A DNA stretch of 64,000 nt from Saprospiraceae bacterium. Its GTDB lineage: Bacteria > Bacteroidota > Bacteroidia > Chitinophagales > Saprospiraceae. The stretch spans positions 55,960 to 119,959 of the forward strand of contig CBFHTK010000004.1 of NCBI GenBank assembly GCA_965658745.1, given 5' to 3'. A program made the translations under genes and the position numbers. Under the pieces are notes generated by a model that saw only the letters and a list, made by a program, of their open reading frames with translations, had not been told where the DNA came from and made no database searches. Positions 46,491 to 53,428 of this stretch are shown one piece after another (the first letter of the stretch is position 1; every line of letters starts with the position of its first letter).

Positions 46491-47246
46491 ATGAAACAAG
46501 CCACTTATATTATAGCTATACTATTAAGCCTTGCATGCTTTACATCATGTGAGGAAGTTACCGAGGACGTGACCTTAGATAATTTCGGCTATGAGTACTT
46601 TCCTCTAGAAGAAAATGCATTTTGGATCTATAAAGTAGATAGCGTTATCTATTCCCAACTCGGAGAGGAAAAGGATACAACTTCTTCATATGTCAAGGAG
46701 GAAATCGTCGAAGTTTTCGTTGACCAAGTTCAAGACACTGTTTATCGTATAGAAAGAAGTGTAAGCAAGTCTTCGGATTATGAATGGAATGTCGTTGATG
46801 TTTGGGCAGCGCAGAAGAATCAGACCATGGCTACAAAGACAGAGGATAATCTGAAGTATATGAAACTAGTTTTCCCTTTAAAAGAAACTGTAAGTTGGGA
46901 TGGAAATGCTTTTATCACTGAGGATGTAGATGTTTTTGTGGGAGGAGAGACTCTAGACTTTCATCGCGACTGGGATTACAGAGTGTTGTCGATTGAATCC
47001 GATGCCTTGATTGGAGATGAATCTTATACTGAAGTAGCTACTATACAAAATGCAGATTCGGGCGAAAACGAATTGATACACAGAAGATTTGTTGTAGAGA
47101 AATATGCTAAGGATGTTGGTTTAGTATATAAAAGGCATGTTATTCTTGATACTCAATGTATTGTAGAGTGTGAAGGCCAGACTTGGGAAGAAAAGGGAGA
47201 AAAAGGATACCTACTTGAATCAGTCTTACTTGAATATGAGAAGTAA
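46491..47246 (+). CDS. Hypothetical lipoprotein
   Basis: 251 aa with a lipoprotein-type signal (ILLSLACFTSC). I recognise no family motif. It is wedged between mnmA and rimM and overlaps the rimM start by 11 nt. Confidence 0.5.
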   Translation: MKQATYIIAILLSLACFTSCEEVTEDVTLDNFGYEYFPLEENAFWIYKVDSVIYSQLGEEKDTTSSYVKEEIVEVFVDQVQDTVYRIERSVSKSSDYEWNVVDVWAAQKNQTMATKTEDNLKYMKLVFPLKETVSWDGNAFITEDVDVFVGGETLDFHRDWDYRVLSIESDALIGDESYTEVATIQNADSGENELIHRRFVVEKYAKDVGLVYKRHVILDTQCIVECEGQTWEEKGEKGYLLESVLLEYEK

Positions 47247-47757
47247 AATAAAGCTAATTCAGGATCTTAGTTTTATAAAAGTTGCGTCGCTTGGCAAAAG
47301 TTTTGGCACTGCTGGATTCAATCGTATCAAGGTTTATGAGTCTTTTGAGAAGTTGTGTAAAAAGCAAGATTTTTTATTTCTTAAACTAGATGACACCTAT
47401 GTTCCATTCAGGGTGATGCAGTGGAAGCAGGGAGGTAGTATGGTCCGTTTTGACGATATCATTTCGCAAGATCAAGCGGATCGTTTAAATGGAGTTGGTG
47501 TGTTTCTCCCAGATGATGCGGCTGGTCACTTGGAAGTTAATACTGAAATGCCATTTGTTGGTTATACAGTTCTAAACCTTGAGGAAAAGATCGGAGATAT
47601 CATTGAGATTTACGAAATGCCCCAGCAATTGCTTGCCCTTGTTGAATACGAAGGTAAGGAAATTTACATACCTCTCCATGAGGATCTCATTGTGGAAGTA
47701 AATGACGAGGAAGAGTATCTCGTAATGGATCTTCCCGAGGGCATTCTTGAACTCTAA
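47236..47757 (+). CDS. rimM: 16S rRNA processing protein RimM
   Basis: The open frame begins at a GTG at 47170 inside the previous gene. The ATG at 47236 gives 173 aa with a RimM-like start (FIKVASLGKSFGTAGFNRIKV) and a PRC-barrel-like C-terminus. Confidence 0.65.
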   Translation: MRSKIKLIQDLSFIKVASLGKSFGTAGFNRIKVYESFEKLCKKQDFLFLKLDDTYVPFRVMQWKQGGSMVRFDDIISQDQADRLNGVGVFLPDDAAGHLEVNTEMPFVGYTVLNLEEKIGDIIEIYEMPQQLLALVEYEGKEIYIPLHEDLIVEVNDEEEYLVMDLPEGILEL

Positions 47758-47770
47758 AAAATTATTTAAT

Positions 47771-49705
47771 CTACAATACTACATTACGTAGTAGATTGTT
47801 TATTTGAGCTAAATCTGTTTTGATAGCCATTATTACCTTAAGTTTAATCCTCAGTTCATCGACGTCATCTGGCGAAATACTTTTAATGTTTTCCTGATTT
47901 TCTTCCAGAATTCGTTGAAGCTTTTTGCTCTTCAAGCGAAGGATACTTTGGGTGAAATCATTTATATAATTATCCTCCGGCATTGCTTGTGTTTGTAATT
48001 CAATACCTCGTGACTTCCAGTTTGCATACTGATATTTATCGGAATTAAGCTCTATTGCTAGTTGACTGATTTCTTCATTTGAGTGTGTAAGAAAATATGT
48101 GGGAGTAAGCACTAGTTCTTCTTCGTGTGCTTTTGCAACTTCTTGAATTACTTCAACATATAACTCATTGTCAAAGTATTCAATAATATTTATAATAGCT
48201 TGATAAACATAGTCATAGACTCGAATTTCTTTGGATTCGTCAATGAAGTTGTCTCCCAATGTCATGAGTATCCTAACTATATCTCTCTCTTGAGCTTCAT
48301 GTGAATTTACATCAAAATTAGCAGGTTGTTGCTTGGTAGGTTTAGAATCTTTATCCCATTCAGCTTCGGATCTAGGTTTCTCAAATTGTGGACTGGAGTA
48401 GCTCTTCTTGTTGATTTGCTGCTTTATAAGTTTGTTTGCTTCTTTTTGAATCGTAAGTTCAGGCACGTCGAGTAATCGACTGCAGAGCTTTACATATTCA
48501 TTGCGCTTAAGGGGGTCAGCAATCTTAGAAATAGATTCTACAATATCTTTTACTACCTTCGAACGTTTAATCGGGTCATCACCAGCTTCTTTGAGCAGTA
48601 AATCAATTTTGAAAAGAATGAAGTCTTTGGAGTTTTCACTTACGAATTCTGTAAATGCAGTGTGGCCAACTTTGCGAACATATGAGTCTGGATCTTCTCC
48701 AGCAGGTAACAACAAAAGACGAACATTCATGTCTTGCTCCAAAATCAAATCTAACCCACGTAAGGCTGCATTAATTCCGGCAGAATCACCGTCATATATG
48801 ACTGTGATGTTCTCTGAAAATCGTTTAACTAACCTGATTTGTTCAACGGTCAGTGCGGTTCCTGAGGATGCCACCACATTTTCGATGCCATTTTGGTGTA
48901 GGCTGATAACATCAGTATAACCCTCCACCATATAACACGTATCTTTCTTTCGAATCGCAGTTTTTGCGAAGTATAGTCCGAAAAGTGTCTTACGTTTATT
49001 ATAAATCTCGCTTTCTGGTGAGTTTATATATTTTGGAATTCTTTTGTTGGAACTTAGGGTACGTGCACCGATACCAATGATCTTTCCGCTTAGATTTCTA
49101 ATTGGAAAGATAATTCTTGAATGAAAAAAGTCTCGATTCTCTTTTAAAAGTCCGAGTTCATGAGCTAGTTCTAGATTGTATCCGCCTTGTTTGAGTTCGT
49201 TTAATAAAAAGTGTCGATCCTCAGGAGCATAACCAAGACCCCACTTTTCAACTGTAGATTCTAAGAATCCACGCTCTTTGAAATAGCTAAGTCCTATAGC
49301 ACGCCCTTCATTTGTTTTTAGGAGGTATTCTTGGAATAGCTTTTGTGCAAAACCATTTATAATGAAAAAACTATCCTTTTTTTGAATTTCTCGACGTACT
49401 TCTTCACTTACTTCCGTCTCTTCAAGTTCAATATTATATTTGTTAGCGATCCATCTGATCGCTTCTGGATAGCTAAGTTTTTCATGGTCCATTAGAAAGC
49501 GTACGGAGTCTCCTGCCATCCCGCATCCAAAGCACTTGTAGATTCCTTTTGCTGGCGATACAACAAAGGATGGAGTTTTCTCATCATGGAAAGGGCAAGG
49601 TCCCTTTAGATTGACTCCAGCCCGTCGCAACTCAATAAATTCACCTAACACCTCTTCAACTCGAGCTGCTGCTTTAACTTCATCTATGGATTTAGGTGTA
49701 ATCAC
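47771..49705 (-). CDS. dnaG: DNA primase
   Basis: 644 aa with a GTG start. The zinc finger is CPFHDEKTPSFVVSPAKGIYKCFGCG. The TOPRIM blocks are MVEGYTDV and YDGDSAG. Confidence 0.9.
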   Translation of the reverse strand: MITPKSIDEVKAAARVEEVLGEFIELRRAGVNLKGPCPFHDEKTPSFVVSPAKGIYKCFGCGMAGDSVRFLMDHEKLSYPEAIRWIANKYNIELEETEVSEEVRREIQKKDSFFIINGFAQKLFQEYLLKTNEGRAIGLSYFKERGFLESTVEKWGLGYAPEDRHFLLNELKQGGYNLELAHELGLLKENRDFFHSRIIFPIRNLSGKIIGIGARTLSSNKRIPKYINSPESEIYNKRKTLFGLYFAKTAIRKKDTCYMVEGYTDVISLHQNGIENVVASSGTALTVEQIRLVKRFSENITVIYDGDSAGINAALRGLDLILEQDMNVRLLLLPAGEDPDSYVRKVGHTAFTEFVSENSKDFILFKIDLLLKEAGDDPIKRSKVVKDIVESISKIADPLKRNEYVKLCSRLLDVPELTIQKEANKLIKQQINKKSYSSPQFEKPRSEAEWDKDSKPTKQQPANFDVNSHEAQERDIVRILMTLGDNFIDESKEIRVYDYVYQAIINIIEYFDNELYVEVIQEVAKAHEEELVLTPTYFLTHSNEEISQLAIELNSDKYQYANWKSRGIELQTQAMPEDNYINDFTQSILRLKSKKLQRILEENQENIKSISPDDVDELRIKLKVIMAIKTDLAQINNLLRNVVL

Positions 49706-49891
49706 GTTGTAAATATACTGGTTTTTGAAAGCTTTGGTGAACCTTCAATTTAATATTCGCAGATTGCATTTTTTTTAGAATAAATATTGATTTTGACGTA
49801 TGTATTTTGTTTATTTTAATATATTGTTGTAGTTTACAGTTGTAAAATAATAGTTTGTATAATTCGATAAGAAAAGATTTTTTATGAAATT

Positions 49892-49928
49892 AGTCGCCCA
49901 GTCGCCCAGTCGCCCAGTCGCCCAGTCC
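49892..49928 (+). repeat. Octanucleotide tandem repeat AGTCGCCC x4 plus partial AGTCC
   Basis: Read directly: AGTCGCCC at 49892, 49900, 49908 and 49916, then AGTCC at 49924-49928. The unit is GC-rich in an AT-rich region. It lies between the ATG at 49884 and the hydrophobic signal-peptide core that starts at 49931. The 8 nt unit is not a multiple of 3. Confidence 0.95.
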
Positions 49929-49930
49929 TT

Positions 49931-50734
49931 TTGCTACTTCTAGCCTTAATTTTCTGCTGTAGTAGTACCTTGCACTCACAGTCAGCCCCACTTCAAGCGG
50001 GCATTTCACCATATAATAACAGTTTGTATCACTTGAGAAACCTTGGTGTAGGTACGTCTTCACCTACCGCCTACCTCCATGTCAGAGAACGAGATTCGGA
50101 AGGTGCAAGCCAGCTTTTTACCGTAGAGAGAACAGTCAATAACTTCCCGGGTCCAGGTTTTATGCATTTTCCTGTTATTCATGCTCTATCCTCAGGAAAT
50201 GTAGGGATCGGTACATATGCTCCTACTACCAAGCTTCACGTTAATGGTGGTAATTTTAGAATAGAGGATAATATGACATTTTTGGACATGGGGATCATAG
50301 CTGGCAGTAATCCATTTGCTCGTATTCGAACCAATGGTCAGTATATTTCTTTCGATCAAAAATGTGAATTTGAAGGACTTGTTCAGCTGAATGATAGATT
50401 AATCATCAGCAACACGATCCCAGGGCAAGGAGATGTTCAGCTAGCTCTGAATGCCGACGGCACAATCAGAGCCCGAGAGGTGAAAGTTGATTTAATAACC
50501 ATACCAGATTATGTTTTTTCCGAAGACTATGATCTTATGCCCCTCGAAGAACTACGCGAATTTATTGACAGGCATCACCACCTGCCAAATGTGAAAAGCG
50601 AGGCAGAATTTCAGAAAGAAGGAAGTTATCCACTAGGTGAAATGAATCTGAAACTACTTGAGAAAGTGGAGGAGTTGACATTGTATATTATTAAGCTTGA
50701 GGAACGTATTGAAAAAATAGAAAATGATGAATAA
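49931..50734 (+). CDS. Secreted fibre-like protein with C-terminal coiled coil; 5' end subject to the repeat-dependent frame
   Basis: 267 aa counted from the TTG at 49931. It has repeated GxGTxxPTxxLHV blocks (LGVGTSSPTAYLHV and VGIGTYAPTTKLHVNGG), as in tail-fibre-like beta-helical proteins. The C-terminal block is IPDYVFSEDYDLMPLEELREFIDRHHHLPNV...LGEMNLKLLEKVEELTLYIIKLEE. The natural ATG (49884) is currently out of frame with this ORF. Confidence 0.6.
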   Translation: MLLLALIFCCSSTLHSQSAPLQAGISPYNNSLYHLRNLGVGTSSPTAYLHVRERDSEGASQLFTVERTVNNFPGPGFMHFPVIHALSSGNVGIGTYAPTTKLHVNGGNFRIEDNMTFLDMGIIAGSNPFARIRTNGQYISFDQKCEFEGLVQLNDRLIISNTIPGQGDVQLALNADGTIRAREVKVDLITIPDYVFSEDYDLMPLEELREFIDRHHHLPNVKSEAEFQKEGSYPLGEMNLKLLEKVEELTLYIIKLEERIEKIENDE

Positions 50735-51191
50735 ATTACTATTAACCTCTGTTCTCGTTTTAGCTTTATTCAGTTGTACTAGGGATGTTTGTGAACAATC
50801 TTGTACAGGCTGTGTAGAATTAGAGCAAATTTTTTATCTAAGACCTGAATGTGAAGCTCATTATAAAATAGATGAAAGCAATATTATCAAAATAGAATTC
50901 GTAGAAGTCGATGATAAAAGAGCTTTATCGGGTTCTTGTGAAGTGTCGACGGGCGGATATGCTAATGCTACTTTTAAAGTTTCTATGAATGACGAAGAAT
51001 TCACTTCAGAACTACAAGTAAGAGGTTGCACAGGAGAAGCTATTCCGTCGGCTGAAACCTCATTGCTTGAAAGTTTTGTTTGGAACGGATATAGATTTTA
51101 TTTTCATAAGATATATCCAAGGTCACGTCTAATTACGGAATATCCAAACTTAAACAATTACGAGACAGTACTATCCATGAAAAAACTTTGA
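50724..51191 (+). CDS. Small Cys-rich lipoprotein, unknown family
   Basis: 155 aa with the lipobox LALFSC. Seven further Cys lie in the mature part (CEQSCTGC..., PEC, SGSC, RGC). It overlaps the upstream gene by 11 nt and ends 1 nt before the next ATG. Confidence 0.55.
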   Translation: MMNKLLLTSVLVLALFSCTRDVCEQSCTGCVELEQIFYLRPECEAHYKIDESNIIKIEFVEVDDKRALSGSCEVSTGGYANATFKVSMNDEEFTSELQVRGCTGEAIPSAETSLLESFVWNGYRFYFHKIYPRSRLITEYPNLNNYETVLSMKKL

Positions 51192-51192
51192 T

Positions 51193-52614
51193 ATGAAATT
51201 GCCACTATTCCTCGTCTTCTTATTTATTTTTTTTCAGTCCCAAGGGCAAATTTGTACCACTCCCGATCCAACTCCAGAGCAGTTGAAGTACATAAAAAAA
51301 ATAATTAACGAATTTGATCCTTCAAGAGACTATAACGGAGAATTACCTATAGTCAGGTTATCACTTAATCGAGTCAGCAGAGATGATGGAACTGGTGGTT
51401 TTTCTTGGGTGGAAATCGACAATGTAGTTTCTGGTATGTCGACATTATATGACAATCTTATTTGTTTTACTGTTATTGAACGGAATGAAATAGACGATAC
51501 CAACTTGTTCGGTGCCCCTGCGCCAGGGGCTCTTTACGATCAATTGATTCTAACTAATCCAACTACTGAGGCAATCCGTATTTATTTAGTTAATGATGGA
51601 GATTCAGGAGGAAGAGCCACTGGACCAGTCATAACGCCAGTAATCGAAGAACAAACCGATGTGGAAGAGGTTACCAACGACCCTACAGTATATTTAAGTG
51701 ATTGGACAGGTGGTTTGTTTACCTTTACCAGTGAAGTTTTAGCCCATGAGATTGGACATTGTCTTGGTTTGTGGCATACTCACACAGAAATAAATGGTAT
51801 TGAAAATGTTGCACGCAATGGAGTAAACGCAAATTGTGATGTCAATGGTGATTTGTTGTGTGATACACCAGCTGATCCAAATCTAGAATTTCTACTTAAT
51901 CCCCTCACGGGTGACGTTCCAAGTTGCTCATATTTCGGTGCTCAAGCAGATCCAGATCCCGTTGGGGCAATTTACACACCACTTACTAACAATATAATGA
52001 GCTATACTCATCCAACTTGCATGACGTCATTGACTACGGGGCAAATAGATAGATGTTTGGATTTTATAACCCAAACAGAACTATTAGATGATATTATTAT
52101 TCCAGAAAATATAAATATCGAAGGGAGTATCTCTGATGACCGTTATTATCATGCTGACGAAACTATCATATCAACAGCAATTCACAGTAGTGGTTTGGTG
52201 GATTATAGAGCACGCGAAACCATTACACTTTCTCCTGGATTTTCTGTCATTGCTTCTACCACTACAGAATTGAGTGCGAAAATTGATAACAATCTTTGCC
52301 ACGATGAACTAATAGCAAATTCTGGATTTATTGGTAACGAAATCGAAGAAAGAAGTTCTGCTTCTGCACATAAACACTTGATGCTCTTTCCAAATCATGC
52401 AGCTGACCAGATTACAGTTCGATTAGGCGATAGTTTGTTTGACTATCAGACAGTTGTATTAACAAATATGCAAGGTGAACGGCTTGAGTTTTTTGCTACA
52501 GAAATTGTTGATAATCAATTCACAGTAGATATTTCTGGATTAAATCAAGGGATTTATCTAGTGACGGTGATTCAAGATAACTACCAAGAATCTATTAAAT
52601 TTGTTAAAATGTGA
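51193..52614 (+). CDS. M43 (pappalysin/cytophagalysin-like) zinc metalloprotease with T9SS C-terminal sorting domain
   Basis: 473 aa with a signal peptide. The extended zinc site is HEIGHCLGLWHTH (51745 onward). It is followed by CDTPADP and a Met-turn region NNIMSYT..C. A short segment, ADETIISTAIHSSGLVDYRARETITLSPGFSV, resembles the '3-coathanger stack' repeat. The tail LMLFPNHAADQITV...GIYLVTV...IKFVKM is a T9SS CTD. Confidence 0.85.
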   Translation: MKLPLFLVFLFIFFQSQGQICTTPDPTPEQLKYIKKIINEFDPSRDYNGELPIVRLSLNRVSRDDGTGGFSWVEIDNVVSGMSTLYDNLICFTVIERNEIDDTNLFGAPAPGALYDQLILTNPTTEAIRIYLVNDGDSGGRATGPVITPVIEEQTDVEEVTNDPTVYLSDWTGGLFTFTSEVLAHEIGHCLGLWHTHTEINGIENVARNGVNANCDVNGDLLCDTPADPNLEFLLNPLTGDVPSCSYFGAQADPDPVGAIYTPLTNNIMSYTHPTCMTSLTTGQIDRCLDFITQTELLDDIIIPENINIEGSISDDRYYHADETIISTAIHSSGLVDYRARETITLSPGFSVIASTTTELSAKIDNNLCHDELIANSGFIGNEIEERSSASAHKHLMLFPNHAADQITVRLGDSLFDYQTVVLTNMQGERLEFFATEIVDNQFTVDISGLNQGIYLVTVIQDNYQESIKFVKM

Positions 52615-52693
52615 TTTTGAAGCTCAATTTATAGTATGTAGAGTGTAGGTTTTACAAAACAAAAGAACAAACTTAGCAAGGAAAAGAGTTTGG

Positions 52694-53428
52694 TCATCTG
52701 AGCGAAAGGATATTTTCAATATAATCACGCATTGTAAAATAGCCTTTTTGGTCCACGAGCCATTTAGCCGCTTTAATCGCTCCTAATGCGAAACCATCCC
52801 TAGATTTAGCGACATGAGTGATCTCGATTTTATCAATCGCATTCTCATATTTAATACTATGCGTCCCAGGAACATCAGGCACTCTCAGGGCTTCTATGTG
52901 CACGGATCCCTCGACCATGGAATCATCTAATGTCCACATATTTACATCACTACGAGTATTAATAATTCCTTCAGCTAGTGTAATTGCTGTTCCACTGGGA
53001 CTATCTAGCTTATGGATATGATGAATTTCACGTATTTGAGGGTAATAGCCACCATTTTCCATGAGCTTTGCTGCATATTCATTCAAGTAGAAAAAGAGAT
53101 TCATCCCGACTGAAAAGTTGCTGCCATATAGAAATGCCGAATTTGGATATTCTTTTAGAATCTCATGAATCTCTGGAAGGCGGTCTAACCATCCGGTTGT
53201 TCCAGATACCACAGGTATGCCTAGTTCAATACATCTACAAATATTATCAAATGCTACAGTCGGTAGGCTAAATTCTATGGCGACATCACAAGTTCTCATC
53301 TGTTCTATATCCCATTTTTCATCGCCTTTGACGACATAGACTAGTTTGCAGTTTTCTTGAGCAAGAAATTCTTCAATGGCATGTCCCATGCGACCGTATC
53401 CGATAAGGCATACTTTAATTTCATTCAT
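52694..53428 (-). CDS. dapB: 4-hydroxy-tetrahydrodipicolinate reductase
   Basis: 244 aa with the N-terminal dinucleotide fold VCLIGYGRMGH and the DapB signature EIHHIHKLDSPSGTA. Confidence 0.88.
   Translation of the reverse strand: MNEIKVCLIGYGRMGHAIEEFLAQENCKLVYVVKGDEKWDIEQMRTCDVAIEFSLPTVAFDNICRCIELGIPVVSGTTGWLDRLPEIHEILKEYPNSAFLYGSNFSVGMNLFFYLNEYAAKLMENGGYYPQIREIHHIHKLDSPSGTAITLAEGIINTRSDVNMWTLDDSMVEGSVHIEALRVPDVPGTHSIKYENAIDKIEITHVAKSRDGFALGAIKAAKWLVDQKGYFTMRDYIENILSLR

Follow-up and report, generated by a model that had tools for sequence, protein, structure and literature searches.

An octanucleotide tandem repeat in the signal-peptide coding region of a Saprospiraceae fibre-like protein gene: a candidate ON/OFF switch

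Can a short tandem repeat, placed inside a signal-peptide coding region, switch a surface protein gene on and off in an environmental member of Bacteroidota? Repeat-driven contingency loci are known mainly from host-adapted pathogens (Neisseria, Haemophilus, Campylobacter, Helicobacter) and, to our knowledge, phase variation in Bacteroidota has been attributed almost entirely to DNA inversion. The question is raised by a 64,000-nt stretch of a Saprospiraceae bacterium genome (contig CBFHTK010000004.1; the whole stretch is called the window hereafter), in which a G+C-rich 8-nt tandem repeat stands between an ATG at 49884 and the gene of a fibre-like protein. An earlier reading of these letters alone, the sequence-only reading, had proposed that the repeat is a slipped-strand ON/OFF switch. 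The tract is real, far beyond chance, and a hypermutable, frame-setting repeat in a signal-peptide coding region; that it acts as a slippage-driven ON/OFF switch, currently OFF, we consider probable, with considerable reservation.

The tract, the reading frames and the ancestral start

The argument rests on the following features.
49706..49883, plus strand: intergenic or promoter stretch from which dnaG (minus strand) and the fibre-like gene diverge, its A-rich leader abutting the ATG
49884..49891, plus strand: ancestral ATG start and the AAATT behind it, with which the signal-peptide n-region opens (codons for M K L), from the sequence and homologue N-termini
49892..49927, plus strand: octanucleotide repeat tract (AGTCGCCC)x4 + AGTC, from Tandem Repeats Finder and shuffles
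49884..49943, plus strand: out-of-frame leader open reading frame (ORF) of the 4-unit state, MKLVAQSPSRPVAQSFCYF, with stop TAG 49941-49943 and a 13-nt overlap with TTG 49931
49928..49981, plus strand: signal-peptide h- and c-regions LLLLLALIFCCSSTLHSQ in the frame of the main ORF, followed by the conserved mature N-terminus SAPLQAG..
49931..50734, plus strand: ORF of the fibre-like, predicted secreted protein, 267 amino acids (aa) from TTG, with a profile match to the Bdellovibrio fibre Bd2133

The four units of the array span 49892-49923 and are followed by AGTCC; Tandem Repeats Finder reports 49892-49927 with period 8, 4.5 copies, 100% matches and a score of 72, the top array score in the window. 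The unit AGTCGCCC occurs four times in the 64-kb window, always within the tract, where shuffles expect 0.37, and its 16-mer dimer had 0 matches in 100 shuffles. With 75% G+C against a local content of about 0.32-0.40, the unit is as conspicuous as the sequence-only reading had remarked. The tract is stop-free in all three frames and encodes the cyclic peptide SRPVAQSP. Upstream of it lies the ATG (49884-49886) in the A-rich context aagaaaagattttttATG, followed by AAATT. The long ORF (804 nt) is in the +2 frame, begins 47 nt downstream of that ATG and is out of frame with it; its own frame is closed upstream by TAA 49868-49870 and holds no ATG, GTG or TTG before TTG 49931, which is its first canonical start. 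The earlier statements that the ATG frame ends at TAG 49941-49943 and that the long ORF can be reached only from TTG 49931 therefore agree with direct reading of the letters. The claimed frame logic (multiples of three ON, four and five OFF) proved exact when the region was rebuilt in silico with 0-9 units, in that 0, 3, 6 and 9 units put the ATG and the ORF in one frame, which 1, 2, 4, 5, 7 and 8 units do not.

A homology search with the 3-unit ON reconstruction against a collection of 5.8 billion protein clusters returned 2,071 homologues, with source names that include Flavobacterium, Algoriphagus, Fulvivirga, Flagellimonas and Crocinitomicaceae. Together with the type IX sorting domain found in the cassette, these names assign the organism to Bacteroidota. 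The closer full-length homologues (P0002, P0004, P0005, P0008, P0009, P0011, P0012, P0019 and others) start with an MK-type signal peptide, directly followed by a conserved mature N-terminus, (A/S)Q(S)APIQxGxSxYNxxLYH, of which the window carries the version SQSAPLQAGISPYNNSLYH. Rebuilding with 0 units (MKLVLLLLLALIFCCSSTLHSQ, then SAP) or 3 units (MKLVAQSPSRPVLLLLLALIFCCSSTLHSQ, then SAP) gives the same architecture, as the sequence-only reading had anticipated when it expected a textbook signal peptide from the ATG. It had also described the TTG-started product as a signal peptide without a charged n-region, and that product (MLLLALIFCCSS...) does lack one, unlike the intact homologues. Because homologues carry an MK signal peptide before the mature N-terminus, and because the ATG frame with 0, 3, 6 or 9 units yields a textbook signal peptide, ATG 49884 is evidently the ancestral start. 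The sole 100%-identical protein in the collection is P0001, a 233-aa call from the internal TTG 50033; TTG 49931 is unused by public gene callers. Gene callers thus truncate such genes (here to 233 aa), and the signal peptide, and hence the secreted nature of the product, is missed in annotation.

In the mechanism proposed here, a non-triplet repeat would have entered the signal-peptide coding sequence after the n-region (MKL) and ahead of the hydrophobic core. Slipped-strand mispairing at replication would add or drop 8-nt units, and their number would decide whether the frame of ATG 49884 continues into the protein. At 0, 3, 6 or 9 units, a full signal peptide would be made and the protein would be exportable. 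With other numbers, translation from the ATG would end after 19-28 codons, and at most a trickle of product would come from the poor TTG start that lacks an n-region. The four units of the window would thus represent OFF. Because the next gene overlaps the fibre-like gene by 11 nt, the OFF state would probably also lower expression of that small lipoprotein-like gene, and perhaps that of the type IX secretion (T9SS) protease gene behind it.

Copy-number variation among related contigs

Contigs carrying P0001 or neighbouring proteins were fetched, all of them from metagenome assemblies, and each unit of their arrays was coded as G (AGTCGCCC) or A (AGTCACCC). Arrays read include the following.
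GGGG, 4 units: the window; L005 (ERZ23491063)
GGGGGGG, 7 units: L130 (ERZ23491248)
GGAA, 4 units: L001 (ERZ24794625); L004 (ERZ24794579)
GGGA, 4 units: L002 (ERZ24794580)
GGGAA, 5 units: L003 (SRR26630451)

Eight alleles were read in total (the window and seven related contigs), with 4 units in six, 5 units in one and 7 units in one. The related strains are therefore not uniform at exactly four copies, which would have spoken against the sequence-only reading, and the outcome favours its hypothesis; near-identical ones carry 4, 5 or 7 units and differ by single-unit changes in the G/A pattern. L001 and L003 show 0 mismatches over 4469 nt and one 8-nt gap, L002 and L003 show 0 mismatches over 3814 nt and one 8-nt gap, and the window and L130 show 5 mismatches over 7422 nt and one 24-nt gap. 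GGAA and GGGA are each one unit short of GGGAA, which is the pattern predicted by slippage, and the near-identical flanks around a differing tract mean that tract change outpaces point substitution. The tract is thus evidently hypermutable by unit slippage.

That the copy-number differences are an artefact of assembly or sequencing rather than biological is very improbable. The tract lengths were read from the consensus of metagenome assemblies, which is what would make such an artefact conceivable; however, the arrays measure 32-56 nt. Reads are longer than this, as is the assembly word of k=141 to which the contig names (k141_...) point, and misassembly is therefore unlikely. Identical alleles moreover recur across independent samples (GGAA in ERZ24794625 and ERZ24794579, GGGG in the window and ERZ23491063), and the differences consist of whole 8-nt units with ordered G/A patterns. 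The tract lengths are accordingly real consensus differences between samples.

Several properties place the tract in the class of repeat-mediated translational switches of the Neisseria opa type. The 8-nt, hence non-triplet, unit lies inside the reading frame, 8 nt after ATG 49884 and before the signal-peptide core. The tract is of slippable length, with 4.5 perfect units in the window and up to 7 in L130, and an in-silico cut-off for phase-variation tracts has been set at 3 or more units for tetra- to octanucleotides (PMC7383803). Its length differs among close relatives (4, 5 and 7 units) with conserved flanks. The feature of this class that is missing, on a small sample, is the ON allele.

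Several observations weigh against a working switch. No ON (3n) allele was found and 0 of the 8 alleles read in frame with the ATG, in what is a small sample, so that the occurrence of both ON and OFF alleles in nature, as seen in opa-type systems, has no counterpart here. The 3-unit ON query likewise retrieved no ON-length protein from the 5.8-billion-cluster collection, only the truncated 233-aa call at 100% identity. JGI metagenomes, scanned once for the leader together with the repeat and once for the downstream flank, gave 0 matches each time and hence no extra alleles. The 4- and 7-unit alleles also fall in one common frame, perhaps a sign that it is tolerable or even favoured, though so small a sample gives this little weight.

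The cassette, its homologues and rival explanations

The fibre-like gene is the first of three cassette genes, and the other features of the locus are listed here.
50724..51191, plus strand: small 155-aa protein with a lipoprotein-like signal (..LALFSC), second cassette gene, 11-nt overlap with the upstream gene
51193..52614, plus strand: M43-like zinc metalloprotease with a T9SS C-terminal sorting domain, third cassette gene
49732..52709, no strand assigned: accessory island of about 2.98 kb (promoter and three genes), replaced by about 48 bp in a sister lineage

The 267-aa product combines a GIGT-type beta-helix fibre segment with a conserved helical C-terminal domain. A profile built from 27 homologues matched Bdellovibrio Bd2133 in the PDB (8ond_A, E 5.3e-16), as well as 8oml_A (3.9e-07), 8ojn_C (4.9e-07), 8ol4 and 8on4, and the same profile matched PHROG tail-fibre families weakly (E 2e-05 and 1.5e-04). 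Pfam and NCBIfam gave no match for the protein. An AlphaFold2 monomer model (predicted local distance difference test, pLDDT, 76; predicted template modelling score, pTM, 0.42) shows a beta-rich body and a long C-terminal helix that corresponds to a highly conserved domain, IPDYVF...HLPN..SE.E...LLEKVEELTLY, itself without a Pfam or NCBIfam match. Foldseek on this monomer model found no match at E<=0.001, and the sequence profile was more informative. The signal peptides of homologues, the fibre-like segment and the T9SS-sorted operon partner together make a secreted or surface-exposed product the prediction. Fibre proteins are a typical class of phase-variable gene, and the resemblance to trimeric fibres counts in favour of a switch. 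The order of fibre-like protein, small protein (about 120-155 aa) and T9SS-sorted protease recurs in homologous loci, with an M43 protease in the window and an S8 protease at other loci. The neighbouring genes in the window are dnaG, rimM and dapB.

The cassette is accessory, since a sister lineage (L132, L133), 96.5-98.9% identical to the window in its flanks, lacks the island and has dapB 55 bp from dnaG; this absence is a further point against an adaptive switch. Comparing the window with L132 and L133 revealed no clear target-site duplication at the island. At the locus of the closest full-length homologue, P0002 (51% identity; L125, L126), a fragment of an IS110-family transposase is adjacent and a gene for TraG, a coupling protein of type IV secretion systems, is nearby, which suggests that such cassettes may travel on mobile elements.

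Between the window and the L001 lineage, the mature fibre protein differs by 3 synonymous and 0 non-synonymous substitutions and the signal-peptide core by 0 and 1 (L to F), the small downstream gene by 0 and 1, and the M43 protease by 0 and 3. The downstream genes of the L001 lineage thus carry only non-synonymous changes, one of them a nonsense codon, and this too speaks against a maintained switch. At 52420, CGA in the window is TGA in L001 and L002; the protease is cut to 409 aa and the T9SS sorting domain is left as a 48-aa ORF. This stop suggests that the operon is under relaxed constraint in the L001/L002 lineage, and the cassette may be decaying in that one lineage. As a separate observation, dnaG (47771-49705) differs between the window and L001-L004 by 49 substitutions (41 synonymous; about 2.5%), with only 8 coding substitutions in the adjacent 2.9-kb cassette, so that the locus is either a recombination mosaic or the product of a recent spread of the cassette.

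Repeats also occur in the signal-peptide region of other family members. Homologues whose 5' DNA was inspected had been chosen for called N-termini without a normal signal peptide; because loci were picked for looking odd, the frequency of frameshifts among them is not an unbiased estimate, and this ascertainment bias weakens the case for a switch. Of the seven homologues examined, five have a canonical ATG or GTG start and an n-region in another frame, with a short tandem repeat between the start and the ORF. All five (L129, L136, L142, L143, L145) are out of frame, with unit lengths of 8, 7, 4, 4 and 2 nt among them, and a one-unit change restores a textbook signal peptide in each.
L145 (34-120), P0032: (AACTCCAC)x5 + AACTCC (x5.75), right after ATGAAA, a second and unrelated octamer; frame restored by +1 or -2 units
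L136 (552-650), P0010: (AAACTCC)x2; restored by -7 nt; MKTPKKQKLAKLFLVLVLLFVAQFSFAQ
L142 (107-200), P0006: (CTTT)x3.5; restored by -4 or +8 nt; MKKFLSFFLIINLLTIKNVNG
L143 (36-100) and L144, P0017: CTTT duplication; restored by -4 nt; MKNILSFFLIINFLTVDLNAQ
L129 (252-300), P0003: (GT)5; restored by +2 or -4 nt; VIRYIIETFKLVCVCALLSLITTDSIIAQA

In a further homologue, P0015, known at the protein level only, an in-frame LSFFLSFF is what a +12-nt expansion of a CTTT-type tract would be expected to give. P0024 (L138-L141) has its signal peptide in frame, with ATA in the expected place of the ATG (ATA AAA AAC AAA ATT...), and four contigs, each from a different run, are identical here; either the start codon has been knocked out or a non-canonical start is used. 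P0047 has no recognisable start. A search with the ON version of P0032 against the 5.8-billion-cluster collection returned only OFF gene calls, and a homology search with P0015 for ON and OFF alleles of the CTTT-type tract found no closer relatives. The recurrence of non-triplet repeats at one site in divergent members of the family nonetheless argues for more than random damage. We tentatively entertain the possibility that the genes of this family of secreted fibre-like proteins in environmental Bacteroidota, which precede those of a small protein and a T9SS-sorted protease, are slippage-driven contingency genes whose signal-peptide regions gained non-triplet repeats, with units of 2, 4, 7 and 8 nt, repeatedly and independently.

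The main rival to a switch is non-adaptive decay, in which an accessory gene on its way to being lost was inactivated when a slippage-prone repeat appeared within it, the length changes being mere mutability with no ON/OFF role. We judge this unlikely, yet it accounts for much of what has been described: the 0 of 8 in-frame alleles and the lack of any ON protein in the collection, the nonsense codon at 52420 in the M43/T9SS gene, the 0 synonymous against 4 non-synonymous changes in the lipoprotein-like and M43 genes of the L001 lineage, the absence of the cassette from a 97-99% identical sister lineage, and disrupted 5' ends in about a third of the close homologues. However, decay does not readily explain why the 804-nt ORF is intact in every contig, why the tract is perfect or nearly so and has grown to 7 units, or why the mature protein differs between lineages by 3 synonymous and 0 non-synonymous changes (a weak point, three substitutions being few). 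Independent repeats of non-triplet length, found at this one site in five homologues, also resemble a recurring solution more than random damage. We consider another alternative, namely expression in the frame shared by 4 and 7 units with the repeat number tuning the level, improbable. Translation would then start at TTG 49931, perhaps through reinitiation once the 19-codon leader ORF has terminated, or else from the near-cognate codon ATT 49889. It is true that the commonest states, 4 and 7 units, are those in which the stop of the leader ORF (TAG 49941-49943) overlaps TTG 49931, 10 nt past the TTG, and that the gene calls of P0003, P0010, P0017 and P0032 also begin with a GTG or TTG where the h-region starts. 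Chance alone should nevertheless place Leu and Val codons such as TTG and GTG in hydrophobic cores, a charged n-region is missing from the product MLLLALIFCCSS.. but present in intact homologues, and the 5-unit allele of L003 is outside the 4/7 frame. Initiation in Bacteroidetes depends strongly on an AUG in an A-rich context, which also counts against a TTG start, and at this locus it is the G+C-rich repeat that precedes TTG 49931, with the A-rich leader preceding ATG 49884. Bacteroidetes are reported generally to do without Shine-Dalgarno-guided initiation (PMC3155529), a further point against such tuning.

Set against these rivals, the slipped-strand ON/OFF switch proposed by the sequence-only reading is borne out in its hypermutable tract, its exact frame logic and its ancestral ATG, and falls short in that 0 of 8 alleles are ON, no ON-length protein was found, constraint appears relaxed and the cassette is absent from the sister lineage. 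The lack of a 3n allele, the nonsense codon in the downstream protease and the missing cassette in the sister lineage leave a reversible adaptive switch plausible but unproven, with decay as its main rival. We infer that switching is frequent in the population, that it can revert to ON, and that it is kept up because variation of a surface or secreted fibre is useful (for instance against phage or predators, or in adhesion).

Known systems and other element classes

Neisseria opa genes carry CTCTT pentamer repeats in the leader-peptide coding region, in roughly 7-28 copies, and many of their genomic copies are OFF. The window resembles them in that a non-triplet tandem repeat, within the stretch coding for the signal peptide, separates the ATG from the mature part, and its unit number sets the frame of a product predicted to be surface-exposed or secreted. 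It differs in unit length (8 nt against 5) and copy number (4-7 against roughly 7-28), and its repeat encodes a polar, proline-rich extension of the n-region, whereas the opa repeat encodes part of the hydrophobic core. The host here is an environmental member of Bacteroidota rather than a host-adapted Neisseria, and the tract is known from OFF alleles alone.

With the contingency loci of Haemophilus influenzae and Campylobacter, the window shares slippage hypermutation of a short repeat and tract lengths that vary between close strains, and there is a precedent for 8-nt units. The classic loci, however, have units of 1-7 nt and occur many per genome, compared with one such tract in the 64-kb window. 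In H. influenzae biogroup aegyptius, octanucleotide GCATCATC repeats lie upstream of hmwA (PMC3309571); they stand in the promoter and modulate transcription, while the window tract is inside a coding sequence. Octanucleotide tracts of 3 or more units have also been included in published phase-variation screens (PMC7383803). The invertible promoters of Bacteroidales come from the same phylum and give stochastic variation of surface structures, but they work by site-specific inversion between inverted repeats by a recombinase, and a recent review treats phase variation in Bacteroides as invertase-mediated (PMC11868660). At the level of the product, the beta-helix fibre segment is shared, as judged from sequence profiles, with the fibres of Bdellovibrio bacteriovorus (PDB 8ond, Bd2133; 8onb and 8onc, Bd3182) and with phage tail fibres, from which the organism and the end domains set it apart.

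The sequence-only reading knew of no such octamer switch in Bacteroidota. This novelty stands in part: full-text literature searches for slipped-strand or contingency-locus reports in Flavobacterium and Bacteroidota returned nothing relevant, though a report may exist, and no repeat-mediated case from the phylum was found; octanucleotide units as such are already in the phase-variation literature (PMC3309571, PMC7383803). The mechanism would be classical; the novelty would lie in its unit length, in its recurrence across the family, and in the phylum and lifestyle concerned. If the switch is real, it would extend the repeat-switch strategy to a new phylum and lifestyle, all the more with the parallel repeats in homologues, and it would point to fluctuating selection on the cassette of fibre, small protein and T9SS protease, which might serve, for instance, as an adhesin or as a receptor for phage or predators. 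If the family-wide reading also holds, this would be the first repeat-based, as opposed to invertase-based, phase variation described for the phylum, and in free-living bacteria.

The short tandemly repeated repetitive (STRR) sequences of cyanobacteria comprise the heptamer CCCCAGT and its relatives, and the window tract is like them in being tandem and in having a similar unit (AGTCGCCC or AGTCACCC compared with AGTCCCC). A scan of a genome collection with (AGTCRCCC)x3 found tandem AGTC[A/G]CCC arrays at no fewer than 119 loci (L006-L124) spread over many phyla, among them Anaerolineae, Vicinamibacterales, cyanobacteria, Planctomycetota, Streptomyces and Anaplasma; the loci examined include none from the source genome of the window. 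Among the matches listed, these arrays are often degenerate (AATCACCC, TGTCACCT, AGTCCCC) and several per genome (a Vicinamibacterales genome has at least 5 loci, and Anaplasma phagocytophilum has 45-49 units), those of the low-G+C subset are mostly intergenic, and none lies near a homologue of the fibre-like protein. Unlike such arrays, which are often long, the window tract is single, perfect and coding; its unit occurs in one array only within the 64 kb, which does not fit a dispersed intergenic STRR-like class. We regard the AGTC[A/G]CCC arrays as a separate, STRR-like phenomenon that is probably unrelated to the window tract.

Other element classes gave no better account of the locus. Programmed ribosomal frameshifting appears unlikely, as inspection by eye revealed no slippery site of the X XXY YYZ type in the ATG frame around the tract. 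Rfam had no match in 49600-50200, and PADLOC recognised no defence system in the three cassette proteins. No recombinase is among the ORFs listed for 47000-53000, and no inverted repeats make a convincing case for an invertible promoter of the Bacteroidales type, the one candidate being a weak inverted pair (14 nt, 86%), one of whose arms falls within dnaG. A sigma-70 promoter scan was uninformative, as it is for Bacteroidota promoters. The promoter region between dnaG and the fibre-like gene does contain a T8 homopolymer (49769-49776). In the L001-L004 lineage this run is T7, so that a second tract here varies in length, with a possible effect on the spacing of the promoter.

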